Source of the DNA: Poseidonia sp.
GTDB taxonomy: Archaea > Thermoplasmatota > Poseidoniia > Poseidoniales > Poseidoniaceae
Direction of reading: 5' to 3'
DNA length: 64,000 nucleotides
Assembly (NCBI GenBank): GCA_049412325.1
Contig: JBMSEL010000007.1
Span: 4,626 to 68,625 of the forward strand
A program made the translations under genes and the position numbers. Position 1 is the first letter of the stretch. Every line of letters begins with the position of its first letter. Positions 18,848 to 49,423 of this stretch are shown here, piece after piece. The notes beneath the pieces are model-generated. The model was not told the DNA's origin. It made no database searches and saw nothing but the letters and a program-made list of their open reading frames with translations.

Positions 18848-21800
18848 GTGAACACCGTGTTTGAACTGCCATTTGGAAAGCCCGTCAATGAATCCATTTC
18901 GCTTGAGGAGGGGGTGCTGCAGCCGTTTGCTCACGGCGTCATCTCAACCTTCGCAGGGCGACGCAAGACCCCGCAAGGGCATCGGCTTGTCCGTGCTGGC
19001 CGGGTCGTCGGTTACCTCTGTGACGCCGACAAAAAAGGCGTGATGCTGGGTGGAGAGGAAGCCAAAACGGCCCTCGAAGCCCTCGAAGCTCAACAGAAGG
19101 TGCGCCACGTCGCCTCATCCTACACCATCGCCCGCCTCGGTGCCCTAGCCGAACTTGTTCCGGAGGCCTTCGTTCACCAAGCCGACCGGCAGGGGCTGAA
19201 ATCGAGCAGCAATGCCGTTGAACGACTGCTTGCACGAGACCTCTCCACCGTGGTCAGAACACTGGCAGACAACATGACGGTACGGGGCGCCATGGCCATC
19301 GACAGCGGCATGCTCATCGACCATGCTGGCGATTTGCCCGGGCTGGGGGAAGAGGAACGCTTGGCCAGTGAACTCCACGAGTTAATGAGCGGCATGGGCC
19401 ATCAGTCCCTGCATGACGGCTGGGGCATGTCCGGTCAAAGCCACTGGACGCTCCATACCGATCGTGGTGCCTTGCTTCTGGCCCAAAGCGGCGAGATTTC
19501 CATTGCGGCATGGACAGAAAAGGACGCCAATCATGCCCGCCTGCTCTCCTCTGCCTCCATTGCGCTTGAAGGCGACCTCGTCGCTGCAGGCGCACACGGT
19601 TCGAAACTGCCCGAAGGATTCACGCTCCGAGAGGGACGTGGTGGACCTGATGCGGTGCTCTCCATGTTGAAAGCCGCCATGCAGGAAGAGGTGACAGGAC
19701 ACCTTCAGTCCGGCTCATCCAGCAAAGCGGTCTCACTCATCCTGTCCCGGGGGGTACCACTCGCCCTTTGGGCACCTTCGATGGACACGGAAGAAGAGGC
19801 CATGCTCGCCCTCACCGAAGCGAAACGCAAAGTGCAACTCATTCGCTTCCCAGCAGGCACCATCGTTTCGTCCAACTCAGGAACCGTGGAAGGGTTCACG
19901 TTGGCTGGTTTCATCGAAACCCTGGCCACCGTCCGTACTCGGTCGGAGGCTCGTCAAGCCTCACTCAAAGCGATGTTGGACGACCTGTTGGGCTTTGAGG
20001 CCAGCTTGGAGGCGCTCCGAGACGCACGTTCCAAACTCAAGTTCAACACCGGCGGTGCCGATGTTGCAGAGGCTTTGCCGGTGATGCGAGATCAAGCCGT
20101 CAGCGCCGTCGATGCAGGGCTGCGCCGCAAGCTCGAAATGGCTGAACAGCGCATTGATACACTCAACAAGGAGAAAGCCGTGTTGTCATCTCAGGTCAAA
20201 GCCCTCGAGAAGAAGAAAGATGCTGCACAAATCGTTGCGCGGGAAGCCACCGAATCACGCCAAGAAAACACCTCAGCGTTGGAAGAGGCGCACGCTCAAT
20301 TGAACACCATGCAAGTTGACCTCGCCCAAGCCCGATCTCAATGGGAAGAAGCCGAGTCCCGTGCAGAACGTCTCGTTCGGCGGGTCAACGAACTGGAGCA
20401 CCAAGTCAGCCAGCGGGCTGCCGAACTTGCGAAAGCGGTCGGTGATGCAGAAAGCAGTGCTGAACTGCAAACGATGCTTGAGGAACTCTCGTTGAAGGAA
20501 GCCGAACTGCAAGCCAACATCGCCGAAGGAAGCGAGCGCCTCAGCACCATTCGAAAGCAAAGCGAAGATGAAGAACGCCGCCTCCGGGTCTTGACCGAAC
20601 AGGTCAACACCAGCCGTGAGCGGCATGCACGCGCACAAGCCGACCTCATCAGCGTCCAAGAGCAAGTCCATGTCAACAACCTCGAGCTTGAAGCGGTTCG
20701 AAGCGAGGAGAAGCACGCACGCCAGCGCACTGAGGAAGACCGCCTTCGACGAGCCGAGGACGAAGCACGGCGAGCAAACATCCAGGCGGAGTTGCGAGAA
20801 CTCATGGACGAACGCCGCCAAGTACTCCGTGAATTGGGCGATCTTGGTGCACGTCGAGGGCACGCTGAAGCCGAATTGTCGACCTTGGTTGACAAAGCCA
20901 CCTCCCTGGCTGAGGCTCACGAAGAAGCCCTCGCTGACATCCAAGAAGCAGAGCGTTTGCGCGCCCGCTTGGCCGAAGAACCGCTTGCACAAGCCCTCTT
21001 GGATGACAACACGACCTTCCAGGGCTTGGGCCCTGTGCTGGAACGGCTCGAACACGCCCGGAGCCTCGGGTACTCGGTCACGATGCTTGACCGGGCGGTT
21101 GAACGAGCATTGCAAGTGATTCAAGGAACGGTCGACCATGTCGCTGCAACGCCACGACACCTGCTCTCCTCCGAGGTCATGACGCTGTTGGAGCGCCAAG
21201 TCCCACAAACAGCAGGAGCCGTCCGAGGATTGGCTCGCTGGTCAGTGCAACAACGATTGGAGCAACAACTCGGCGAAACCGTCAATCATGTCGTCGTGGA
21301 CCTTGAGCACCTGCTCGAAGATTTCGACCGTTCCATCACGATGCTTCGCCGTATCCGAAACGTGCTCGAGCAAGTCGAGCGACTCGGTGCACCGTCCCAT
21401 GAGGTCCACGCTCTGCTGGCCAATTGTCAGCGGCCTGAAGCCCTCCCAACCTTGGCCATGGGCACTCGGAAACTGATTCAGGTTGCGCTTGACGAGATCT
21501 ACCTCGAAGCCGACCAGCGTGATGCTGGCGAAGCCATTGGTTTGGAAGAGACGGCACGCGTCCTTGAGGAACTCATCACTCAACTCGATGCTTCGGGACT
21601 GACGGACGGACGACCCCGCGGCATGATGTGGGACTTCCAACGTGACGGGCTGCTTCCGTTTGAACGCGAATCCATTCCAGCCGAGCAACGCATTCCGGTG
21701 AACGAGGCCATGCTCGACGGCATGGAGCCTCACCTTGTGCAGGCAGAGGCCGTGGAAACCGTCGCTCCGGAGGCGAATGAAACCGTGGACGACGAGGGGT

Positions 21801-22039
21801 GGTCCCCCCTGCCGCCTCCCACCGATGAATCTCCTTCCGTGAACGAGACCGCTCCAGGAAGCGAATCGATCACATCAATGGACTCACTGGAAGACGAACG
21901 GGCCCAACTTGAGGCGGAACTTGCTCGCTTGGACGCTGAGCGCAGTCATCGCATCGCACATACTCCCGCTCCAGCAAGCAACGGTGCCGACACAGCGCTG
22001 GCCGACCTTGAGTCTCGCCTGTCCGACATTGAATTCTGA
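18848..22039 (+). CDS. Large (1063 aa) protein with N-terminal roadblock/LC7-like repeats, a ~600-aa coiled coil and an acidic C-terminus
   Basis: The N-terminal 330 aa contain roadblock-like segments (VRGAMAIDSGMLIDHAGDLPG...LLLAQSGEISIAAW). Residues ~400-1000 are heptad-rich (E/R/A/L/Q). GTG start coupled to the upstream roadblock gene. Confidence 0.6.
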   Translation: MNTVFELPFGKPVNESISLEEGVLQPFAHGVISTFAGRRKTPQGHRLVRAGRVVGYLCDADKKGVMLGGEEAKTALEALEAQQKVRHVASSYTIARLGALAELVPEAFVHQADRQGLKSSSNAVERLLARDLSTVVRTLADNMTVRGAMAIDSGMLIDHAGDLPGLGEEERLASELHELMSGMGHQSLHDGWGMSGQSHWTLHTDRGALLLAQSGEISIAAWTEKDANHARLLSSASIALEGDLVAAGAHGSKLPEGFTLREGRGGPDAVLSMLKAAMQEEVTGHLQSGSSSKAVSLILSRGVPLALWAPSMDTEEEAMLALTEAKRKVQLIRFPAGTIVSSNSGTVEGFTLAGFIETLATVRTRSEARQASLKAMLDDLLGFEASLEALRDARSKLKFNTGGADVAEALPVMRDQAVSAVDAGLRRKLEMAEQRIDTLNKEKAVLSSQVKALEKKKDAAQIVAREATESRQENTSALEEAHAQLNTMQVDLAQARSQWEEAESRAERLVRRVNELEHQVSQRAAELAKAVGDAESSAELQTMLEELSLKEAELQANIAEGSERLSTIRKQSEDEERRLRVLTEQVNTSRERHARAQADLISVQEQVHVNNLELEAVRSEEKHARQRTEEDRLRRAEDEARRANIQAELRELMDERRQVLRELGDLGARRGHAEAELSTLVDKATSLAEAHEEALADIQEAERLRARLAEEPLAQALLDDNTTFQGLGPVLERLEHARSLGYSVTMLDRAVERALQVIQGTVDHVAATPRHLLSSEVMTLLERQVPQTAGAVRGLARWSVQQRLEQQLGETVNHVVVDLEHLLEDFDRSITMLRRIRNVLEQVERLGAPSHEVHALLANCQRPEALPTLAMGTRKLIQVALDEIYLEADQRDAGEAIGLEETARVLEELITQLDASGLTDGRPRGMMWDFQRDGLLPFERESIPAEQRIPVNEAMLDGMEPHLVQAEAVETVAPEANETVDDEGWSPLPPPTDESPSVNETAPGSESITSMDSLEDERAQLEAELARLDAERSHRIAHTPAPASNGADTALADLESRLSDIEF

Positions 22040-39285: not shown

Positions 39286-40479
39286 ATGTTCACAGGCACC
39301 GTAGAAGCGAAAAGCCACGAAGGTGGCCTACTGGTGCACTTTGACGGTTCATCGCCAGCCTTGAACGCCATCATGGTCCGAGCCGACGACGGCGCCTACA
39401 TCGGCAAAGTGGACGGAGTCATCGGTAGCACCGACCGACCGCTCGCTCACGTAGCCCACATCGACCGCTCGCTCGACATGGACAGCTTGATTGGAATCTC
39501 GGTCTCCGTTCGCGCCAAGAAAAAGCCGACTGAGCAGCGTCAGGACCGCCGGCAAGGCGAGCGAAGAGAAGGGAACACGCGCCACTGGGACCGACGAGGT
39601 GACGACCGTCGCCAAGATGGACGAAACAACCGTGGGTACCGAAATGACAGAGGTGGCGACCGACGCTCCAACGACCGCCAAGGCGGCCGAGACCATCGAG
39701 GCTCCCGAGATGGAGGTCAAGACCAGCGAACCTACGACGATTGGACCTGTCCAAAATGCAACAACTCCAACTTTGCCCGCCGCACGGTCTGCAACCGATG
39801 CGAAGAGCCCCGACCCGGTGGTGGCGGCCAGCGTAACGACCGTGGCGGTGATCGACACTTCAACAACCGGCAAGGCGGACGGGATAACCGTGGATTCAGA
39901 AACGACCGTGGCGGAGATAACCGTGGATTCAGAAACGACCGTGGCGGGGATAACCGTGGATTCAGAAACGACCGTGGGCGTCGAGACCAGGGCCGACCCC
40001 AACGGAACACCTTCAACGATAACGATTGGACCTGTCCGCAATGTAACAACTCCAACTTCTCGTTCCGAAACGCCTGCAACCGATGCGAGGCACCTCGACC
40101 AGGTGGCGGCGGTGGCGGTGGTCAACGAGGCGGAGGCCGCCCTTCCTATGGTGGCCAACGCAACGACCGGCGTCAAAGTGGCGGGTACCGAAACGATCGT
40201 GGTGACCGAGGTGGAGACCGACGCTCATCTTACGGCGGACAGCGCAACGAAGGGGGCCGAGGCTTCCGGGACGGTGGGCGACGAGACGGTGGCGGCCGCG
40301 GACAAGGTCGCTGGCAAGGCGGCCGTGACGACCGCCCACGTGGTGGAGGTGGCCCTCAACGTCGTGGCCCCTCTGATGGAAGCTTTCGAAGAGCCAAAGG
40401 CAAGCGCTCCGGCCATGCCCATAACCGTCCACCTCAAGATTTCAGAGCGCCCCGTTCATTTGAACGAAAAGAAGACTGA
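39286..40479 (+). CDS. Gar1-like (H/ACA RNP) domain protein fused to two RanBP2-type zinc fingers and an extended RGG/Gly-Arg-rich (GAR) region
   Basis: N-terminal 80 aa match the Gar1 barrel pattern (GTVEAKSHEGGLLVHF...YIGKVDGVIGSTDRPLAHV). Two W-C-x2-C-x3-N-x6-C-x2-C fingers (WTCPKCNNSNFARRTVCNRC and WTCPQCNNSNFSFRNACNRC). There are more than 25 R-G-G/N-D-R-G-G repeats. Confidence 0.6.
   Translation: MFTGTVEAKSHEGGLLVHFDGSSPALNAIMVRADDGAYIGKVDGVIGSTDRPLAHVAHIDRSLDMDSLIGISVSVRAKKKPTEQRQDRRQGERREGNTRHWDRRGDDRRQDGRNNRGYRNDRGGDRRSNDRQGGRDHRGSRDGGQDQRTYDDWTCPKCNNSNFARRTVCNRCEEPRPGGGGQRNDRGGDRHFNNRQGGRDNRGFRNDRGGDNRGFRNDRGGDNRGFRNDRGRRDQGRPQRNTFNDNDWTCPQCNNSNFSFRNACNRCEAPRPGGGGGGGQRGGGRPSYGGQRNDRRQSGGYRNDRGDRGGDRRSSYGGQRNEGGRGFRDGGRRDGGGRGQGRWQGGRDDRPRGGGGPQRRGPSDGSFRRAKGKRSGHAHNRPPQDFRAPRSFERKED
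39883..39981 (+). repeat. Three tandem 33-bp direct repeats (gataaccgtggattcagaaacgaccgtggcggr) encoding DNRGFRNDRGG x3 inside the Gar1-RGG gene, within a wider degenerate RGG-repeat array (~39560-40330)
   Basis: Visible near-perfect periodicity in the sequence. Confidence 0.8.
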
Positions 40480-40493
40480 ATGGACGTGAGACC

Positions 40494-41534
40494 ATGAGCG
40501 CCGAATCGCATTACCTCAATGCGTTGGAAGCCCTCGACGAAGGCGACCGGGACCTTGCCAAAACCGAGGCAAAAAAGGCAGTTACACTTGACCCTGACCA
40601 CCTTGAAGCGTGGTCGGTCTATGTCGAGGCGTGCCTTCCACCAGCCCCTACGCCACCGACGATGGTCCAAGCTGCCCAAGCGCTTTCTGCGGTGAAGAAG
40701 ATCGTCGCCGCTGACCCAAGTCGAATGGACATGTGGGTTCGTGGTGGACGTTTGATGGCCGACGACTTGGGTATGCTCCACGATGCCCTTCACTGGTGGC
40801 AATCCTGCCGAGACGTCGCCCCTGACGAAGTCACCCCCGTTGTTGAGATGGCGTCCATTTTGGCCGATATGGGTGAATACAGTCTCGCTCAGGAACGTCT
40901 TCAATCCATTTTGGACGATAACATGGACGTGGGGATGACGCAATTCAGGAAAATCAACAGCCTGCTCCAACTGGTGCGTGCGGCTGCCACGCAACAGCCA
41001 CAGGACATCTTCAAGCCCTACGAGCGTCATCACGACGGTTGGATTGCTATTCGCAACAAGATGGTCAAGCCACCAATGTCGCAGAACTTCATCTTCCTCA
41101 TCACGGCGTTGCCAATTTTGCTCATTCTCTTGATTCTCCTTCAGGGAATGCGCCCCGAGAGTTTCAACATCGTCACCCTGTGTTTCAACACCCTCGCCAT
41201 CCTCATCGTGATTCTGGTGTGCGCCCGTAACGCCAAACGCTGGTTCCAAATCATCAATCGGCCAGCGTTTAACTTGCTCCGAGCCATGAATTTTGAGGCT
41301 GCTACCGGATACACCGTCATGGACGAGGAGATCCGCACCTCCGTGCTCTACATGTACATCATGCAGCGAAAACCACTTTCGTGGCAAGAACGCATGCTCA
41401 AAATCATTGACAAGGGCAAGCCACTGCCCAACAACTGGCGGATGCGTCTTCCTGATTTCGACTCACACATGGATGCAGAGGGGCACATTCCCATCGAGGA
41501 AGGACCCCTGCTCGAAGCCTACGAAGAAGAGTGA
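40494..41534 (+). CDS. Hypothetical protein with an N-terminal TPR-like helical domain, two central TM helices and a C-terminal cytoplasmic domain
   Basis: ORF. TM segments FIFLITALPILLILLILLQG and IVTLCFNTLAILIVILVCA. TPR-like N-terminus (NALEALDEGDRDLAKTEAKKAVTLDPDHLEAW). Confidence 0.45.
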   Translation: MSAESHYLNALEALDEGDRDLAKTEAKKAVTLDPDHLEAWSVYVEACLPPAPTPPTMVQAAQALSAVKKIVAADPSRMDMWVRGGRLMADDLGMLHDALHWWQSCRDVAPDEVTPVVEMASILADMGEYSLAQERLQSILDDNMDVGMTQFRKINSLLQLVRAAATQQPQDIFKPYERHHDGWIAIRNKMVKPPMSQNFIFLITALPILLILLILLQGMRPESFNIVTLCFNTLAILIVILVCARNAKRWFQIINRPAFNLLRAMNFEAATGYTVMDEEIRTSVLYMYIMQRKPLSWQERMLKIIDKGKPLPNNWRMRLPDFDSHMDAEGHIPIEEGPLLEAYEEE

Positions 41535-41911: not shown

Positions 41912-44900
41912 TCACTGTTGCGATTGAGCGTACTGGACAGCGTACTGCTGTGCATATGCTGCGGCCGTCGCTGCATCGTAGCCTTGAGCCACGAACTGCT
42001 GGTAGTACTGTTCGTACACCGCTTGGTCGAAGCCTGCTGCGGGTTGTGCTGCTGGCTGCGCTGCTGCGGGCTGAGCTGCTGCTGCGGGCTGAGCCGCTGC
42101 ACCGCCAACGTACTGCGCTGCAAAGGCCCTCGCTGTTTCCTCAGGGTAGCCCTGAGCGATGAGTTGTTGCACGTACTGCTCGGTCGGGTCAAGCGCATCA
42201 GCGCCAAATGCCCCTTCCATACCGCCGAAGGCATCGTCCTTGTCCGAACCCTTGCGCATGAACATCAGCGAACCACCGATGATCAAGAGCAACACGATGC
42301 CGCCAATGAGGAGCACCATGGGGTCAAGACCACCAGAAGCATCGTCGCCATCGGTGGTGGTTTGGGTGTTGTCGGTCCACTCACCGGTGAGCGGGTCGTA
42401 GGACCAAGCACCTTCCCATTGACAGTCGCCGTTCGCGTCGAGCACAAACTCGCCACCGGCATCGATGGCTCGCTGATCTGCCTCAAGGCCCTGACAGGCA
42501 GGGAGTTTGAGTTCAATCGATTTGGTCGTGACCCAACGCTCGTTAGGGTAGGTGCCCTCGTAATACTTGAGGAAGACCGTACGAGTGACGGGCTCGTTCG
42601 TGTAGAAGCTGCTCATATCGAGCGTCAACTCGAAGTTCTCACCGTCGCTGAGGTTGTCGCTCTTGGCCCAGAGGTCCTGTTGGCCCAACTGGTACTTGAT
42701 GGCCGCAGATGCACTGAGGTTGTCCAAGAAGAACGCCGCTTCGACGTAGACTTCACCGGTCTCCGAGCCCGAGAGGACCTTGCCGGTGAGGGTGATGGTG
42801 TCGTCGACGAATTGGGTGCCGTCCAAGTTAGCGTTGTCCCACTGCACGTCGGGCTCCTCATCGCCGAAGCCATCGGGCACGACGACGAAGTACATGCGGT
42901 GCTTCTCAGAGAACTTGCCTGCACTGTCGTAAACGACCAGTTCAATTCGAATCTGGTTCTCTGTCGTAGCGGTTGAATCAACGGTCACGTTCTTGAATTT
43001 GTACGACCATTGGCCACCGCTTGCTGCGGTTTGGGTGAACGTGTGGCCGTCCAAGTCGAACGAATCGTCGCCGTAGGGTGCGTCAAAGAGAACCTTCCAT
43101 TCGTAGGTCTCAATGCCGTTGCCGTCAAGGGCGTCCATATCCATGGATTCGCTGGCATCGAAGTGGATGATCAGTTCGGCGTCGTCGCCTTCACCTTGCA
43201 GAATGAGACGGTGAACGTCCCATTCCACATTGGAGACCGTCTTGGTGCCCATGAACTCAACGTTGTCTTCGTAGTCCGTTCGCATGTCGATCACAGCGTC
43301 GGCCTCGGGTCGGAATTCATCAGCGTAGACATCGTTGGTCTCGACCACGACGTCGATGGTTCGGGCGTGGCCGTTGTCGTCGTGGAGCATCAGCGTGATG
43401 TGCCATTGCTCGCCCTGAGCGCAGCCGGTTTGCGACGCAAGGTCAGCCTTACAGAAGGACATCACGGGAGACATCTCGGTGGAGTGCCCGGTGACACCGG
43501 CAGCAAGGGTGCTGCCGTCCCAGTTGGTGGGGCCGTCGATGATCCAGTCGGCTTCCAAGGTCTCGGTGGTCGAGGTCGTGAAGCCGAAGGTCAAGGTGGC
43601 GTCGCTCTTCATGTAGCGGAGCGCATACTTGCCGGTGCTGGGGTCGATACCGGGGACTTCACCGTTGATGGTCAAGTCCAGGCCGTTGCCGAGCGTGCCA
43701 AAGCCGTCGGGGTACGGGTTGACTTGGTACTGCAGGAGGTTGCCCATGAGCGGGAAGGTGGAGCTGTCGGCTCGCTCAGAGTGTGTGGCAATGTCAATGG
43801 TCGAGATGATCATCCCGCCAGAGAAGTAGCTGCAGACACCCAGAACGGTGTCCTGAATGTCCTCGGTTGAGCGAATAAGGCGCTGGAAGTAGCCGCCATC
43901 TTCCATGTAGCCGTTGCAGGTCTCAGGCACGTTGTTGGTGCTGACCGACTTGGTGTTCAACACAGCTTGGGCTACACCGGAGTTGGCGTCAAAGCCCTGG
44001 AAAGCGTTCACGTCAATGTTGTCCATGACCGGGTGGTAGGGGTCAGCGAGATCCATGGTAGCGTAGGTGACCTGGGTGCTGGCCGTGTCTCGACTCTGGA
44101 TGTCGAGGCCGAACGGCAGGCGACCGGCCAATCCCTGATCGAGACCGTAGATTTGGCTGCCGAGCGGGCCAAGATGGGCCTGCACGGTACCGCCGGCGGA
44201 CATGAAGTTCTCAAGCACCGTTCGGCGAGCAGGCTCACCAAGGTACTGATAGTAGCCATCACCGCCAAATTGCGTGTCCTTCGCCACCAACACATCCTGC
44301 CATGGCAGCACAATCTTGTCGTAGTGGGTGAACCAACCGGCATCGAAGTATGTACTCCAGTCGTTGATCTCGTACTGGGTGTAGGACATACCGAGGATGG
44401 CCAAATCTTGCTTGATGGCCGTGGTGCGTGATGAGGTGTCCGAAAGGATGGCGACGTCAACATGGTCGGCAAAGGTGGCGTGGAAGTAACGCTCGTTACC
44501 AGTTTCGCTGCCATCTGCCAAGCGTCCATAGAAGCTGATGTTGTAGGTCTTGCCATCCATCCATCCGTTCCAGGGTGTGAACGAGACCGTGGTCTTCTGT
44601 TGACTCTGGAGGGTGACAGCCGGTCCAGAGTCCACGATGTGGGCTTGGCTACCGTCAGCCATGTCAGTGACTTCCATGTAAAACACATAATCACCGGCAA
44701 GCACACCGTTGGTGGCTTGGATGTCCCAAGAGTGCGTCAAGGCACTGTCGATGGGCAGGACACACGCCAGGCTCTGGTCGTCGTGGCAAGCGAGGATATT
44801 GGGCTTGCCAATGGAGATGTCAACCGATTCGACGTTGAAGATGACACGCTCGATGTTGTTGGCTTCAGACAGTTCGTTGTCGTTATACCATGACTTACCA

Positions 44901-47900
44901 ATCGTGGTGTTGTCAAAGACGGTCTTGACATCCAAGCGATACACGCCCGAAAAGAACTCGTGGCTGGCGATGACGTTCGTAGCAGCATCTTCAGCGTCCA
45001 CATTGGTCCGAGAATCGGTGTAGACTGCATCTTGGACGAAGGTGTACTCTTGCAGGGAGATGTTGTTGAATCCAATGCCCTTGAAGCCATCGTTGATGCC
45101 GTTGCGGCCGTCATCGTCCGACTGGAAGTCAAAGTGGACGTCCACCATGGAACCCTGGAGCGACATGCACTCGGTTCGCCACTGGCTGGAGTCTGGGGAA
45201 GACCGGTTTTGGATGTACAAGTGAGTCAAGTCAATGCTCGTGGTCTTGACAAGTTCATCGGAGTTGAAGAACACGTTGTAGTTGCCGCTGCCATCGGTGT
45301 TCGCCGGGTCGCCGATGAAGGACAACTCGGTTTGGTCGATGGATTCGGTTGCGTTGACGATCCCGTTGCCATCGTCGTCGTTCTGACAGGTACCGTCTTC
45401 GTTGTAGTCATTCCATTGAGCGAAGACCAAACCGGTGTAATTGGCGCCGTCTTTGTCGTAGTCAACCGACATGGTGGCGTAGTCACTAGGATCGACATTG
45501 CCGTTCTGGTCGATGGTGTAGAACGTGTCAGCATAGTATTCGAAGTTGAGTGAAACGAAGTCGCCGCTCATGCTCGTCAGGTCGATGTTGGGGATGGTCA
45601 GGGTTTCGTTGGCCCAAGCATCGTCGTAGCCGAGGGTACCGGTATCACAGGGGTGGCCGAACCAGTAGGCGTTGTTGTTGAAGATCTTGGTCGAACACGA
45701 GTTTTCGTTGTAAATGGCACCCTTCGGTTGCTGGTTCTCTTCGTAGCGGTAGCCTTGACTTCCGCCCTCAAAGGTTTCCTCACAGACCGCTGAAGGTGTA
45801 CCGCAGTACACGTCCGATGGCGTAGCGGAATAGACCGTTGCCTCGATACCAAAGTCCACCGGGGTGTTACCGTAGTTGTTGGTGGTCACCGAGATGTCAA
45901 ACGTACCTTCAGCATAAAGGCCACCAGGATTGAAGAAGTCGATGGACTCCACGGTGGGGTCGTACAAATTGAACGGTGTGACATAACCGATGACGTCATC
46001 GTTGATGTCCTGTTCATCCCAAGCGTTGTTGGAAATGGTCGCCGAGATTCGATAGGTGGTATCGTTGAGCAGGTTAGCCTGAATGGACGTGGTGTACTCT
46101 TGGCCGGGCTCGAGGTTGCTGAGCGGCCCGATGGTGGTGGATTGCGTTTGCGGGTTGGGCAAGAAGGCGGTGTTTTGCTTCCAGATGGTCAGGTTGTCAA
46201 CGGCATAGCCATCACGGCCACTCCATTGGGATTCGTTGTCGTTTGCCGTTGAACCTTCGAAACCGGTGCGGAAACGGAAGCGGATGTCAACGGTTTCGCC
46301 AGCCCAGAAGGACAGGTCGAAAGCCCCGAGGTCTTCCTCGGTGAAGTTGTCCCAACCGTAGTAAGTTCCAGCAGAGAAGAGACCGTAGTACACGATGTTT
46401 TCTGGGGCTGCACCCCAGGAGTTTTGCTTGAAGAGACGGTCGTTGTCAAAGCCACCCCAAATGGTAGCACCAGAAGGACAGGCGCCTTCAATGGCCGCTT
46501 GCTGTGGGCAACCGATAAGGTTCCAGCCAGTTTCCTCGCTTCCAACCTCAACGATGGCCAAGTCATCCCAAACATCCCCGACGATGAAGCCGGTTCCGTC
46601 AGAATTTCCGAGGGCCCCAAGCCCAAGGTGGCGGAAGAGTTCAACGCTCATGAAGGCACGGTCGGCGCCGGTCAAATCAACATCGTTGAGCACCATGGCG
46701 TCGTCCCAATTCTTACCAAAGCCGCTCCAAGTGTCGCCAGAGGAATTGGTCTTCATGTTCCCGGCCCACATGAAGTCGGTCGGATTGATGTAGTTCGCAG
46801 AAACGTTGGCGTCGTTGTTGCCCCCGCCAGTGGCGCCGGTCGAATGGTTCGTTTCCAAGTGCCAGTTGGTTGTACCGTCGACGTACTCCTCAAAGCTCCA
46901 TGAACAGCCAGATCCGCAACCGGTCTTGTCCTCAGCTGAGTCCCAATCGTTGGCGTAAACAGTGTTGTTGGTGGAGTTGGCTTCATCAACGATCTTCAGT
47001 TCGACATCAAGGTCAGCAGTTTGACCGTTGAGGGTGTCCATGCCGGTGTTGGTGACGGTGACGTTGATCGTGCGTGTTCCTTCACCAACCAAGCCAAAGA
47101 AGCGGTCGGTCGGAGAGATATCAAGGGAGGTGACGGCCAAGTCTTTGTTGTCCATTTCAACAACCGTGAGCGTATCGTATTGACCAGCCCATCCGAAGTT
47201 GTCTCGCCAACCACCGAAGTTGTAGTTGGTGTGACCGACCACGAGGTCTGGGGCCGAGCTCGAACCACCCTGAAGTTGACCAACGGCCACGGCGGAGGGG
47301 CGGCGGCCTGCTGGGTAGGACAATGGGCTCACGTGTCCACCGTTGCCATCAGAAAGCGTGACTTGAACGGTGGTAGGGAAGTTGAGGAAGAAACTCGAGG
47401 TGACTCCACCAGCGGAGTCCGAGGTGTTTTGCTGGAAAGCGATGGTGGGGTTGATGAAATCAGGTTCGCTATCGCCGTTGAGGTCGGCCACTTGGATTGC
47501 CCACGAGATGTAGGGGCCAAAGTAGGCGAGTTGTGAATTTCCGAAGGTGCCTTGAGCAGAGGCTTGCTTGAAGCTCACATTTTCGAGGTTGCTGTCCATC
47601 ACAGCAATGGTGTCGACGTAGCCGACGCCGCCGATGTCAGCGATGGAGAAATCTTCGGTGGTGCCAACGCCCATGTTGATGACGTGGGTGTTGGCTTGGT
47701 TGGTGCCGTAGGAATAGGTGGCGGGGTAGTTCTGGAGTTGACAGTCGTACTCAATGACAGTGATGTTGTCGTCGTTGCCGGGGTTGGTGACTTGCCCGGT
47801 GGAGTAATCGAGACCTTCGCTTCGCAGAAGGAAGATGTCGTCATCGGTACAAGCGCCGGTCAGCCCGCTCTGAGATTCACCGTAATCGCCGACCTCGATG

Positions 47901-48655
47901 GACCGGTACGTGTTGGATTGCGAGGATCCCAGTGCTGTGGGAATGCCGTTGGTGGCCGAGGTGATCGGGCTGCGATAAGTCACGACCCGCTGCGTGGTGA
48001 TGTCGCTGAGAAGGTCGAGCACGTAGATGTCGTCGTTGCCGTCTTGGTCTGCGTCGCCAACGGTCATGTCCCACACCCAAAAGTGGGTAAACCGCTCGCC
48101 GATGGACCAGTCTCGGTTGCTACAACCGCCGTTCTCAATGATGGTGACGTTGCCGGGCTCAGCGGCAGGTGCGCCTTGGTCGTTGGTCTTGAACGGATTG
48201 TTCTTCTGATAGATGACGATGTCAATGGCTGAGTCGCCGGTGAATTCACCCACTTCCACCTGCTCAACGTTTGCAAACTCATCCCAGTCAGCATTGCGGC
48301 TTTGGTTGCCAGCCACCCAAATGTCCTGGCGTTCGTTGAAGTTGCCGAAGCCGTCGTTGTAGAGGATGGTCATCGAGTGCGTGCCGTCCGTAGCGACAGC
48401 CATGTCGTTGTGGCCATCACAGTCGAAGTCACCGATGGCGACATCCATGGGGTCGCGATTGGTGGTGTAGGTTCGTGCAACCGATGCACTGGCGGTGGTT
48501 GCCAGCGCGGCGGTGGTGCTGAGCACCATCAGCAGCGTGAGGAAAATACTGCGCATTCGGGCTTTAGAGAGGTCGTTTTGGGTTGACATGGACATCACTT
48601 GTCCTCGCGACGGCCTGTTCGGATATAATGCCTTTGCACTCAAGTTCCCCTTCAA
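41912..48655 (-). CDS. Giant (~2,230 aa) cell-surface protein with FG-GAP/integrin-alpha-like repeats, a C-terminal TM anchor and a low-complexity cytoplasmic tail. The likely start is the MSMSTQND methionine at ~48595.
   Basis: Signal peptide (IFLTLLMVLSTTAALATTASA), DxDxDG-type FG-GAP-like motifs (DFDCDGHNDMAVATDG, DADQDGNDDIYV, DLNGDSEPDF) and T/N/D-rich beta composition. C-terminal TM (LLIGGIVLLLIIGGSLMF), then AAQPAAAAQPAAAQPAAQPAA and a Q/Y/A-rich tail. A TATA-like ttatat lies ~30 nt upstream on the minus strand. Confidence 0.7.
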   Translation of the reverse strand: MKGNLSAKALYPNRPSRGQVMSMSTQNDLSKARMRSIFLTLLMVLSTTAALATTASASVARTYTTNRDPMDVAIGDFDCDGHNDMAVATDGTHSMTILYNDGFGNFNERQDIWVAGNQSRNADWDEFANVEQVEVGEFTGDSAIDIVIYQKNNPFKTNDQGAPAAEPGNVTIIENGGCSNRDWSIGERFTHFWVWDMTVGDADQDGNDDIYVLDLLSDITTQRVVTYRSPITSATNGIPTALGSSQSNTYRSIEVGDYGESQSGLTGACTDDDIFLLRSEGLDYSTGQVTNPGNDDNITVIEYDCQLQNYPATYSYGTNQANTHVINMGVGTTEDFSIADIGGVGYVDTIAVMDSNLENVSFKQASAQGTFGNSQLAYFGPYISWAIQVADLNGDSEPDFINPTIAFQQNTSDSAGGVTSSFFLNFPTTVQVTLSDGNGGHVSPLSYPAGRRPSAVAVGQLQGGSSSAPDLVVGHTNYNFGGWRDNFGWAGQYDTLTVVEMDNKDLAVTSLDISPTDRFFGLVGEGTRTINVTVTNTGMDTLNGQTADLDVELKIVDEANSTNNTVYANDWDSAEDKTGCGSGCSWSFEEYVDGTTNWHLETNHSTGATGGGNNDANVSANYINPTDFMWAGNMKTNSSGDTWSGFGKNWDDAMVLNDVDLTGADRAFMSVELFRHLGLGALGNSDGTGFIVGDVWDDLAIVEVGSEETGWNLIGCPQQAAIEGACPSGATIWGGFDNDRLFKQNSWGAAPENIVYYGLFSAGTYYGWDNFTEEDLGAFDLSFWAGETVDIRFRFRTGFEGSTANDNESQWSGRDGYAVDNLTIWKQNTAFLPNPQTQSTTIGPLSNLEPGQEYTTSIQANLLNDTTYRISATISNNAWDEQDINDDVIGYVTPFNLYDPTVESIDFFNPGGLYAEGTFDISVTTNNYGNTPVDFGIEATVYSATPSDVYCGTPSAVCEETFEGGSQGYRYEENQQPKGAIYNENSCSTKIFNNNAYWFGHPCDTGTLGYDDAWANETLTIPNIDLTSMSGDFVSLNFEYYADTFYTIDQNGNVDPSDYATMSVDYDKDGANYTGLVFAQWNDYNEDGTCQNDDDGNGIVNATESIDQTELSFIGDPANTDGSGNYNVFFNSDELVKTTSIDLTHLYIQNRSSPDSSQWRTECMSLQGSMVDVHFDFQSDDDGRNGINDGFKGIGFNNISLQEYTFVQDAVYTDSRTNVDAEDAATNVIASHEFFSGVYRLDVKTVFDNTTIGKSWYNDNELSEANNIERVIFNVESVDISIGKPNILACHDDQSLACVLPIDSALTHSWDIQATNGVLAGDYVFYMEVTDMADGSQAHIVDSGPAVTLQSQQKTTVSFTPWNGWMDGKTYNISFYGRLADGSETGNERYFHATFADHVDVAILSDTSSRTTAIKQDLAILGMSYTQYEINDWSTYFDAGWFTHYDKIVLPWQDVLVAKDTQFGGDGYYQYLGEPARRTVLENFMSAGGTVQAHLGPLGSQIYGLDQGLAGRLPFGLDIQSRDTASTQVTYATMDLADPYHPVMDNIDVNAFQGFDANSGVAQAVLNTKSVSTNNVPETCNGYMEDGGYFQRLIRSTEDIQDTVLGVCSYFSGGMIISTIDIATHSERADSSTFPLMGNLLQYQVNPYPDGFGTLGNGLDLTINGEVPGIDPSTGKYALRYMKSDATLTFGFTTSTTETLEADWIIDGPTNWDGSTLAAGVTGHSTEMSPVMSFCKADLASQTGCAQGEQWHITLMLHDDNGHARTIDVVVETNDVYADEFRPEADAVIDMRTDYEDNVEFMGTKTVSNVEWDVHRLILQGEGDDAELIIHFDASESMDMDALDGNGIETYEWKVLFDAPYGDDSFDLDGHTFTQTAASGGQWSYKFKNVTVDSTATTENQIRIELVVYDSAGKFSEKHRMYFVVVPDGFGDEEPDVQWDNANLDGTQFVDDTITLTGKVLSGSETGEVYVEAAFFLDNLSASAAIKYQLGQQDLWAKSDNLSDGENFELTLDMSSFYTNEPVTRTVFLKYYEGTYPNERWVTTKSIELKLPACQGLEADQRAIDAGGEFVLDANGDCQWEGAWSYDPLTGEWTDNTQTTTDGDDASGGLDPMVLLIGGIVLLLIIGGSLMFMRKGSDKDDAFGGMEGAFGADALDPTEQYVQQLIAQGYPEETARAFAAQYVGGAAAQPAAAAQPAAAQPAAQPAAGFDQAVYEQYYQQFVAQGYDAATAAAYAQQYAVQYAQSQQ
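41990..42115. repeat. Low-complexity GCTGCKG(C/G) repeat tract encoding the (A/Q/P)n cytoplasmic tail of the giant surface protein
   Basis: Direct observation of repeated gctgctgcgggctgagc units. Confidence 0.6.
48618..48640 (-). promoter_or_regulatory. TATA-like box (minus-strand ttatat) ~25-30 nt upstream of the probable ATG of the giant surface-protein gene, suggesting a leaderless or short-leader transcript
   Basis: Plus-strand ggatataatg at 48621-48630. Confidence 0.35.
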
Positions 48656-48730: not shown

Positions 48731-49423
48731 TCAAATCCTGCCGGACAACCACTTCGGCGAAGGACCCCATCCGGTGGCATCCCCGCCGTGAATTTTCACC
48801 AGTTTTCCTGCGGAAAACAACGATTCCAACCAGACTTCAAGTGCGGTGCCTTCTCGCCCACCCAACTTGTTGCTGGCAATCTCCTCGATGTCTTCGGTTC
48901 GAAGACCGGTGCTCCCGTGGTCGCGGACGACGAGTTGGAGCAATTCTCGCAACCACGCCTCAGCCATCGGATCAACACTGGTGGCGCCTTGGGCAGGGAT
49001 TGGTGGGTCCATGTCTTCGATGATGTCCATCAATTCGATGATGTCCGGACGTTCAGCTGGTTCAAGCCCGGCTTGACTCAATTTTTCCTGAAGGTTTAGC
49101 TCGCCGATGGGGCGACGCACGATGGGGATTCGGCTCGGGTCTGGCGTGGGCCCCATGTCGGCCGGAGGTTGGTCCTCTGGTGCGTCCTCCATCTCGATAT
49201 TCTCGCCAGCCTCTTGGCGCTCTCGGCTGACGGTGGAGAGGTTACTGGCCTTGACCTGTGTCCCCGTAGGCATGGTCCAACCCACGCCGGTCAAGCCGAG
49301 TTCATCAACGTGCTTGGCCACCCATTCAGCATCGCCTTCAATGACGATGTTGACATCGTGATCATCAGACCGGAATCGGTACCTGACGTTGCCTCGGAGT
49401 TGACGCATTGAACGGGTCTCCAC
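48731..49423 (-). CDS. Hypothetical protein (230 aa) with an acidic/Pro-rich central linker, between aconitase and the giant surface-protein gene
   Basis: ORF only. Same strand as its neighbours. No domain recognised. Confidence 0.4.
   Translation of the reverse strand: METRSMRQLRGNVRYRFRSDDHDVNIVIEGDAEWVAKHVDELGLTGVGWTMPTGTQVKASNLSTVSRERQEAGENIEMEDAPEDQPPADMGPTPDPSRIPIVRRPIGELNLQEKLSQAGLEPAERPDIIELMDIIEDMDPPIPAQGATSVDPMAEAWLRELLQLVVRDHGSTGLRTEDIEEIASNKLGGREGTALEVWLESLFSAGKLVKIHGGDATGWGPSPKWLSGRI

Follow-up and report, generated by a model that had tools for sequence, protein, structure and literature searches.

In the present study, a giant gene of the archaeon Poseidonia sp. has been analysed in a window of 64,000 nucleotides (the whole stretch of DNA under analysis; assembly GCA_049412325.1, contig JBMSEL010000007.1, positions 4,626 to 68,625). 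The gene, an open reading frame (ORF) at 41912..48655 on the minus strand, is predicted to encode a type-I membrane-anchored surface protein with a signal peptide, an ectodomain of about 2,050 amino acids, one transmembrane helix and a cytoplasmic tail. The tail carries a short helix-loop-helix unit with Gln-Gly-Tyr in its loop, referred to here as the QGY hairpin. Sequence comparison has identified this hairpin as a C-terminal module of about 30 amino acids, lying on the cytoplasmic side of the transmembrane segment in several unrelated proteins. It may serve as a cytoplasmic docking module for a common partner, acting in positioning, anchoring or signalling, and all the forms of docking taken together are given a rough probability of 0.55. 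The giant itself is of a known kind, and the tail hairpin is an undescribed conserved domain; no description of the giant protein or of its tail was found in the literature searched.

Numbered from the ATG at 48595, the tail comprises 114 amino acids (residues 2114-2227) and includes an AAQP run and YAQQYAVQYAQSQQ, in agreement with the first-pass annotation of the window, which had described a tail of about 110 amino acids with AAQP and tyrosine/glutamine runs. Four parts can be distinguished in it (pLDDT is the predicted local distance difference test score of the structure model):

42191..42256, minus strand: acidic, Gly-rich juxtamembrane spacer, residues 2114-2135 (pLDDT below 50; ratio of non-synonymous to synonymous differences 0.50)
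42107..42190, minus strand: hairpin 1, residues 2136-2163 (DPTEQYVQQLIAQGYPEETARAFAAQYV), a helix, the QGY loop and a second helix (conservation, codons and model)
42035..42106, minus strand: (AAQP)n low-complexity linker, residues 2164-2187 (entropy 1.25-2.1 bits; pLDDT below 50)
41915..42034, minus strand: hairpin 2, residues 2188-2227 (..YEQYYQQFVAQGYDAATAAAYAQQYAVQYAQSQQ), a diverged copy of hairpin 1 (gapless alignment and model)

Hairpin 1 was found to be the most conserved part of the whole protein. In an alignment of 34 orthologues with 54-85% identity, the most conserved 27-residue segment of all 2,227 residues is 2136-2162, DPTEQYVQQLIAQGYPEETARAFAAQY, where the mean identity reaches 0.904 (whole protein, 0.657) and 18 of the 27 columns are invariant, among them Y2141, Q2143, Q2144, Q2148, Y2150, E2152 and R2156. 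The motif is present in each of the 111 orthologues having an intact C-terminus, and in all 102 species-level orthologues that were measured. Among these 102, the identity of hairpin 1 was 89% where the whole proteins are 55-70% identical, 88% at a whole-protein identity of 40-55% and still 75.6% at 25-40%. The second copy (YEQYYQQFVAQGYDAATAAAYAQQYA) shows 44% identity to the first in a gapless alignment and is less constant: it occurs in 87/111 intact orthologues, the other 24/111 having a single copy, and in 59/102 species-level orthologues, a single hairpin being present in 43/102.

The comparison of codons was carried out pairwise between the giant and 12 relatives of 78-95% identity; the counts are not phylogenetically independent, and the contrast among them is very large:

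Hairpin 1: 147 synonymous and 2 non-synonymous differences, ratio 0.01
Hairpin 2: 149 synonymous and 25 non-synonymous, ratio 0.17
Linker: 172 synonymous and 48 non-synonymous, ratio 0.28
Ectodomain (residues 1400-2090): 2,970 synonymous and 1,249 non-synonymous, ratio 0.42
Transmembrane helix: 75 synonymous and 88 non-synonymous, ratio 1.17

The codon pattern thus places hairpin 1 under very strong purifying selection. The constraint acts on the protein and not on DNA or RNA, because the synonymous sites of hairpin 1 change as freely as those elsewhere.

In the structure model, hairpin 1 is predicted as two helices at 2137-2147 and 2152-2163 (pLDDT about 65), and hairpin 2 as helices at 2191-2203 and 2208-2226 (pLDDT about 82). 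Low entropy in the tail is limited to the approximately 24 residues of (AAQP)n, and the DNA of this linker forms an imperfect tandem repeat at 42034-42100. The distance between both hairpin motifs varies from -4 to 37 amino acids among the orthologues. The (AAQP)n spacer is disordered in the model and its length shifts through repeat slippage; its role would be only that of a flexible tether between two docking units. In two distant orthologues (L115 1747..7998, minus strand, and L069 1..4587, plus strand) the linker is absent and one hairpin follows the other nearly head to tail (…TARQYANIEIYVQQLITQGYDEQTARQYAQQYY…); the spacer can therefore be lost completely.

The tail is rich in Ala (29%), Gln (17.5%) and Tyr (8.8%) and bears the (AAQP)n run, which would suit a prion-like tail driven by its composition, as in the first-pass annotation, or else a non-functional drift. 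But it is the specific sequence, position by position, and not the composition which is kept, with a ratio of 0.01 in hairpin 1 while its synonymous sites change; moreover, the low-entropy part is short, Asn is absent (0) and helical hairpins are predicted. This explanation is hardly credible, and the prion-like description had to be given up. The further suggestion that the tail mediates clustering or signalling holds in one part: a functional tail is strongly supported by the conservation and selection, though not one that acts through a prion-like composition. Absence or variability of the tail in close relatives had been named as a sign of drift, and with the motif in 111/111 intact and 102/102 species-level orthologues the finding survives.

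The hairpin was also found outside the giant. A profile of 36 columns, made from both copies, was searched against 1.84 billion representative proteins and gave 103 matches at E-values up to 0.001, 41 of them at 1e-10 or below; a few of the 103 are false positives, such as Big_2-like 'FSAQGYDASN' repeats and similar sequences. The pattern of the module can be written as [DE]P.E.Y[VIT]QQ[LM][IV].QGY[PD]E..AR.YA.Q[YF]. Among the near-full matches, 63/66 lie within 45 amino acids of the C-terminus and 56/66 have a transmembrane segment within 110 amino acids upstream. Carriers which are otherwise unrelated end alike: the transmembrane helix is followed by basic residues and an acidic spacer, and the hairpin closes the C-terminus. 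Besides members of the giant family and their fragments, the following carriers were recognised:

P0143 and L043 (1,288 amino acids): thrombospondin-type-3-repeat proteins
P0165: a WD40/propeller and thrombospondin-type-3 protein
P0223 and P0215: propeller and thrombospondin-type-3 proteins
P0195: a 1,459-residue beta-helix/immunoglobulin-like protein from 'Euryarchaeota archaeon' genomes, on contigs of up to 1.86 Mb
P0180: a 205-residue protein with a small ectodomain
P0175: a polytopic membrane protein
P0172/P0252, P0201 and P0219: small soluble zinc-ribbon proteins

In the membrane protein P0208 the hairpin is found at the N-terminus. One further protein, P0185 (907 amino acids), is built of six or more repeats whose motif looks related (QLQ.QLI.QGYPP..AA..ANQAVQ.LF). 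These repeats are neither C-terminal nor placed after a transmembrane segment, and P0185 may represent a separate family in which a similar helix-GY-helix unit is used.

The strict place of the hairpin after the transmembrane helix and at the extreme C-terminus of many different surface proteins, and its confinement to one archaeal order among the matches listed, are also what would be seen if it were a biogenesis or sorting signal. Such a signal would be recognised once by a Poseidoniales-specific machine of insertion, glycosylation, secretion or processing and perhaps removed afterwards, in a logic analogous to PGF-CTERM/archaeosortase or to the C-terminal domains of the type IX secretion system (T9SS). 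However, the hairpin is cytoplasmic and follows a complete stop-transfer helix with RK, it is long and duplicated, and its carriers include soluble zinc-ribbon proteins as well as P0208, which has it N-terminally; these need no such sorting. No archaeosortase-type CTERM model was matched either, as the NCBIfam CTERM models gave no match to the full giant or to the tail. Hence, the hairpin is improbable as a biogenesis signal. The PGF-CTERM anchoring signals and the transmembrane-anchored S-layer glycoproteins do resemble the giant in having a C-terminal transmembrane helix on a large acidic archaeal surface protein, and a C-terminal element common to many surface proteins of one lineage. They differ from it in that the giant has no PGF or related motif, that its shared element is cytoplasmic, and that 114 structured residues follow the membrane helix in place of a few basic ones. 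An archaeosortase-type signal of the PGF-CTERM kind was accordingly rejected, with no model match and 114 residues after the transmembrane helix.

A relation between the tails of different carriers is seen within one lineage. The metagenome-assembled genome (MAG) SP3059 holds an orthologue of the giant, L045, together with the unrelated carrier L043, and the second hairpins of the two are near-identical (NP[KR]MEAYIQQL..QGY.E.QARAYAMQ[FY]ADRF) and unlike hairpin 2 of the giant in the window. Within a lineage, the tails therefore vary in concert from carrier to carrier, which would be explained either by exchange of the module or by co-evolution with a common partner. This likeness of tails within one genome may also be taken in favour of self-association, in which the hairpins pair into four-helix bundles, within a tail, between tails or with the zinc-ribbon carriers, and cluster the carriers in patches or in a lattice under the membrane; this would be the intracellular clustering of the first-pass annotation, brought about by a folded motif and not by low-complexity condensation. 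Two-helix hairpins commonly dimerise, the module is often present as two copies on a flexible linker, and soluble two-hairpin proteins exist, among them P0252, which has AAQPA linkers and the ending IQYAQSQQFS, much like the tail of the giant with its second hairpin. On the other hand, 43/102 species-level orthologues have only a single hairpin, and the invariant polar Gln, Glu and Arg point to a specific heterologous interface no less than to the hydrophobic core of a bundle. Self-association is on the whole rather unlikely.

In comparison with the known families, none of the Pfam and NCBIfam models reaches its threshold against the hairpin. The best Pfam match of the tail is UBA/TS-N (PF00627; E-value 0.0015, 18.8 bits), which falls under the gathering threshold of 22.4, and hairpin 1 alone scores 16.5-17.3 bits against this threshold. 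PF00627 is also the most frequent match over the instances of the module (10/22 at E-values up to 1, none at threshold). Its alignment spans profile positions 2-20 of 37, i.e. the first helix, the loop and the beginning of the second helix, and the invariant QGY is located where UBA has its MGF/MGY loop. The likeness to UBA/TS-N consists in the order of helix, (M/Q)G(F/Y) loop and helix and in a short cytoplasmic protein-binding module, and the difference in having two helices in place of three and in standing at the end of membrane-protein tails. In place of the three-helix UBA bundle of about 40 amino acids, two helices per unit are seen in the model, and many carriers end 8-12 residues beyond helix 2. 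The hairpin profiles found no UBA chain in the PDB and nothing significant there. Equally weak likenesses of the hairpin were obtained with SAM-domain helices (Caskin-2) and with NCBIfam perm_prefix_1, which suggests a generic helix-Gly-aromatic-helix pattern. The hairpin as a UBA domain was rejected on these grounds, namely the sub-threshold scores, the two helices, the third helix missing in many carriers and the lack of a UBA chain among the PDB matches.

A divergent UBA which binds ubiquitin-like proteins (SAMP, Urm1 or ThiS-type) and ties the tails to modification or to Cdc48/proteasome turnover would draw on the same top and recurrent PF00627 match and on the QGY at the place of the MGF/MGY loop. 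Against it stand the same scores, all below 22.4 bits and covering only positions 2-20, the number of helices, the PDB result and the equally weak SAM-domain and perm_prefix_1 likenesses, which make it very improbable. That the hairpin functions in the manner of a small helical module for protein binding is nevertheless plausible.

The docking reading is preferred here, and its mechanism may be pictured as follows. The signal peptide exports the ectodomain (about 2,050 amino acids), which is acidic and disulfide-rich. An integrin-alpha-like propeller forms its tip and is borne on many successive beta-sandwich domains together with a single alpha/beta domain, and the one transmembrane helix anchors the giant in the membrane. 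Inside the cell, the hairpin may bind the putative common partner through exposed Gln, Glu, Arg and Tyr residues, which are invariant. By such docking, both the giant and the remaining carriers would be tethered or positioned, or else a coupling through the membrane would be set up as by the tails of integrins and receptors.

Several points weigh against this docking. The partner and the binding are only putative, and the strong conservation fits self-association or a signal recognised in biogenesis equally well. The motif was searched with a regular expression and a lenient hidden Markov model in the other ORFs of the window and in four syntenic loci, and none was found outside the giant; other carriers in this Poseidonia genome are likewise not demonstrated by the 120 matches listed in the genome scan. 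The predicted helices of hairpin 1 have a pLDDT of only about 65, and the codon counts come from related genomes compared in pairs. The ectodomain may act in adhesion, as an envelope scaffold or as a receptor; for the C-terminal half of the protein, the Foldseek search returned only generic multi-immunoglobulin structures (GH2 beta-galactosidases, PorU, mastigoneme, complement C5 and CD109) with TM-scores of 0.10-0.17, which are uninformative as to function.

As regards the gene, the ORF has 2,247 codons counted from TTG and is the largest in the window, as the first-pass annotation had noted. The runner-up has 1,063 amino acids (18848..22039, plus strand) and matches no Pfam family at E-values up to 0.001. 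Translation almost certainly begins at the ATG at 48595, for a product of 2,227 amino acids, because a database protein with 99% identity (P0001) has a length of 2,227 amino acids and the alignments of the orthologues begin at this Met; the TTG at 48655 is then the mechanical start of the ORF. Hydropathy analysis showed two hydrophobic segments only, at residues ~14-35 and with a peak at 2086-2115. The signal peptide and the single C-terminal transmembrane helix of the earlier description are both borne out by these segments and by the model, in which the signal peptide is a helix at 9-29 with low pLDDT lying apart from the fold. The surface protein is probably glycosylated. The remaining features of the protein are as follows:

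41912..48595, minus strand: giant coding sequence, 2,227 amino acids and stop (length of P0001, orthologue alignment)
48482..48595, minus strand: signal peptide region, residues 1-38 (hydrophobic core ~14-35, then ASA|SVAR)
47156..48478, minus strand: FG-GAP beta-propeller head of integrin-alpha type, residues ~40-480 (Pfam FG-GAP_3, blades of the model, Foldseek)
44474..47155, minus strand: chain of beta-sandwich and jelly-roll domains with conserved Cys pairs, residues ~481-1374 (predicted secondary structure; invariant Cys and Trp columns)
43676..44473, minus strand: alpha/beta domain, residues ~1375-1640 (model; conserved motifs VDVAILS, KI(L/V)LPWQ and GGT(V/L)QxHLGP)
42326..43675, minus strand: membrane-proximal beta-sandwich domains and Cys-containing stalk, residues ~1641-2090 (alignment, model)
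42257..42325, minus strand: single transmembrane helix, residues 2091-2113, with RK inside (hydropathy peak 2.71 at residue 2094; model helix 2094-2111)

The ectodomain is rich in Asp (10.1%), Gly (9.7%), Thr (9.3%), Ser (7.4%) and Asn (7.1%), close to the T/N/D/G-rich composition claimed earlier, and it is strongly acidic, with 312 acidic against 89 basic residues; it contains 22 cysteines, mostly invariant in the orthologue alignment. FG-GAP_3 (PF13517) is the sole Pfam family found on it, passing with 27.5 bits against a cut-off of 26.9 in four stretches, while FG-GAP (PF01839) with 17.3 bits remained under its cut-off of 22.1. The full giant protein had no match in NCBIfam, and its profile found no significant match among PDB sequences. 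AlphaFold2 models were made for the protein split into two halves, each with an alignment of 34 sequences, and the mean pLDDT was 75.5 for the N-terminal and 79.0 for the C-terminal half. Residues ~40-480 are modelled as successive four-stranded blades followed by beta-sandwich and jelly-roll domains. The best Foldseek matches of the N-terminal half are integrins alphaV, alphaM and alphaIIb (E-values 1e-12 to 1e-8); superposition on the integrin headpiece gave a TM-score of 0.42-0.45 across about 590 columns, and the ITFG2 propeller gave about 0.6. The architecture of the head is thus shown to be that of an FG-GAP, or integrin-alpha-type, beta-propeller, and the FG-GAP-like propeller proposed in the first-pass annotation was located in the N-terminal half by the domain annotation and structure prediction which it had recommended. 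Its many DxDxDG motifs were overstated, as three strict sites are present (residues 56, 181 and 1045, the first two in the propeller) and the relaxed pattern gives five.

Residues ~481-1374 have no Pfam or PDB sequence match. For the alpha/beta domain, no Pfam family was found and its profile gave nothing significant against PDB sequences; its motifs are retained among orthologues down to 31% identity. A marginal likeness to cyanovirin-N (43661..44482, minus strand, residues ~1535-1608; E-value 0.002, 20 bits per half, C..GG.....ID) is probably due to chance and is distrusted because the model puts this segment within the alpha/beta fold. A catalytic His/Cys dyad (H1474/C1588) in the same domain was also set aside, since no peptidase model matches and C1588 most likely forms a disulfide with the invariant C1560. 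Residues ~1641-2090 are the least conserved part of the ectodomain.

The distribution of the giant was studied by scanning for the DNA pattern of the tail motif in one genome per species, and among the 120 matches listed 113 are orthologues of the giant, with identities from 95% down to about 29%. The closest genome among them is a Poseidonia sp. MAG (95% identity), and the genome of the window is Poseidonia-like (MGIIa). The full-length orthologues in the protein database have 2,165-2,290 amino acids and 53-99% identity, and are annotated under Poseidoniales or 'Euryarchaeota' as 'VCBS repeat-containing' or hypothetical protein. All but one of the matches listed belong to Poseidoniales, Marine Group II (MGII), Thalassarchaeaceae or unclassified Thermoplasmatota-type MAGs. 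The sole exception is a 'Yoonia sp.' MAG, an alphaproteobacterium (L062, CAXRJJ010000043.1), whose ORF is a giant orthologue of 50% identity; this record is probably a mis-binned Poseidoniales contig. No match of the DNA pattern was found in viral contigs.

The gene order is conserved also in distant lineages, as was seen on checking the synteny, a step put forward with the first description of the gene. It reads as follows:

Same order in distant lineages: pyruvate:ferredoxin oxidoreductase, cyclophilin, aconitase, an uncharacterised gene of 214-230 amino acids, the giant, a variable gene
Continued on the opposite strand: TPR/membrane protein, zinc-ribbon protein, a 631-670-residue protein, ABC-2 transporter

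The remaining genes of the window are housekeeping ones, including threonyl-tRNA synthetase, Cdc48, aldehyde dehydrogenase, succinate dehydrogenase and P-type ATPase. From these comparisons, the giant is read as a Poseidoniales-wide chromosomal gene which is syntenic and of conserved length, and it is the largest widely conserved surface protein of the order. The designation as a typical adhesin, in the usual variable and island-encoded sense, fits poorly because of the conserved length, the order-wide synteny and the housekeeping neighbours.

In the immediate vicinity of the giant, two conserved neighbours have been noticed:

48731..49423, minus strand: conserved gene of 230 amino acids without known domain, directly upstream of the giant on the same strand
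40494..41534, plus strand: 346-residue protein with an N-terminal TPR domain (Pfam TPR_19, TPR_14) and then membrane segments, convergent and downstream of the giant

The upstream gene is found immediately next to the giant in 6/6 loci with enough sequence, down to orthologues of 32% identity. Its protein has no Pfam family, is Pro/acidic-rich in the middle and helical towards the C-terminus, and is a candidate functional partner or regulator of the giant. The TPR/membrane gene is present in 73/79 loci which have downstream sequence. A TPR gene also adjoins the gene of the carrier P0252 (L125 8683..9111), and it was considered whether a TPR neighbour recurs as a partner; no relationship was detected between the two TPR proteins, and the adjacency is a probable coincidence. 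Further along, at 39286..40479 on the plus strand, a 397-residue protein has a short N-terminal beta-rich domain and then a long Arg/Gly-rich 'RNDRGGD' low-complexity region, in which two RanBP2-type zinc fingers lie (WTCPKCNNSNFARRTVCNRCEEPRP and a second copy; Pfam PF00641, E-value 5e-18). In its layout this archaeal protein recalls FUS/EWS/TAF15, in which RGG and RanBP2 zinc fingers are combined. In distant Poseidoniales loci the same position is held by a gene of 163-397 amino acids.

Among the known systems, integrin alpha may be regarded as the closest overall analogy of the giant, in terms of architecture, with membership limited to the FG-GAP propeller. Both have an N-terminal FG-GAP propeller, immunoglobulin-like legs, a single transmembrane helix in type-I topology and the most conserved short motif in the cytoplasmic tail, and integrins are the best structural matches from the PDB. 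In contrast to integrin alpha, the giant is roughly double in size and has additional jelly-roll and alpha/beta domains, its tail motif is unrelated to GFFKR, and the identity is about 9-13%. It has no known beta-subunit partner, carries three strict DxDxDG sites of which two are in the propeller, and belongs to one archaeal order. The VCBS/FG-GAP surface proteins resemble the giant through the PF13517 match and in being large, acidic, secreted and beta-rich. They are usually variable, repeat-expanding adhesins, whereas the giant has a conserved length, a syntenic position, a transmembrane anchor and a cytoplasmic module. An archaeal S-layer protein would be compatible with its order-wide conservation and transmembrane anchor.

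The Poseidoniales thrombospondin type-3 proteins P0143, L043, P0165 and P0223 share the end of transmembrane helix, spacer and QGY hairpin with the giant, and their ectodomains are unrelated to it. In the accessible part of Rinke et al. 2019 (PMC6461757), thrombospondin and flotillin genes are presented as adhesion traits of Poseidoniales, and the shared tail of the thrombospondin proteins is not mentioned in that part. Calcium-binding families specific to Poseidoniales have been described as well (PMC9258230).

This study has revealed a conserved module which can be used to approach the cell surface of a major group of marine archaea. In surface ocean water, no archaea are more abundant than the Poseidoniales (Marine Group II). 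To our knowledge, no member has been cultured, and their cell envelope and attachment to particles or algae are almost unknown. In terms of annotation, the analysis defines a new conserved domain and corrects the label of 'VCBS repeat adhesin with a low-complexity tail'. The part of the giant which is most constant under selection lies inside the cell, though its head looks integrin-like. The short shared cytoplasmic module provides a concrete experimental handle on its partner, on the envelope proteins and on receptor-scaffold coupling in archaea. Tentatively, and with more doubt than the docking itself, the QGY hairpin may be viewed as the inner end of a Poseidoniales-specific transmembrane linkage, through which otherwise unrelated surface proteins, among them the giant and the thrombospondin-repeat proteins, would connect to a single intracellular scaffold or adaptor. 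If true, the outside and the inside of the cell would be joined by an integrin-like link of independent origin, in the planktonic archaea that are most abundant in the surface ocean.

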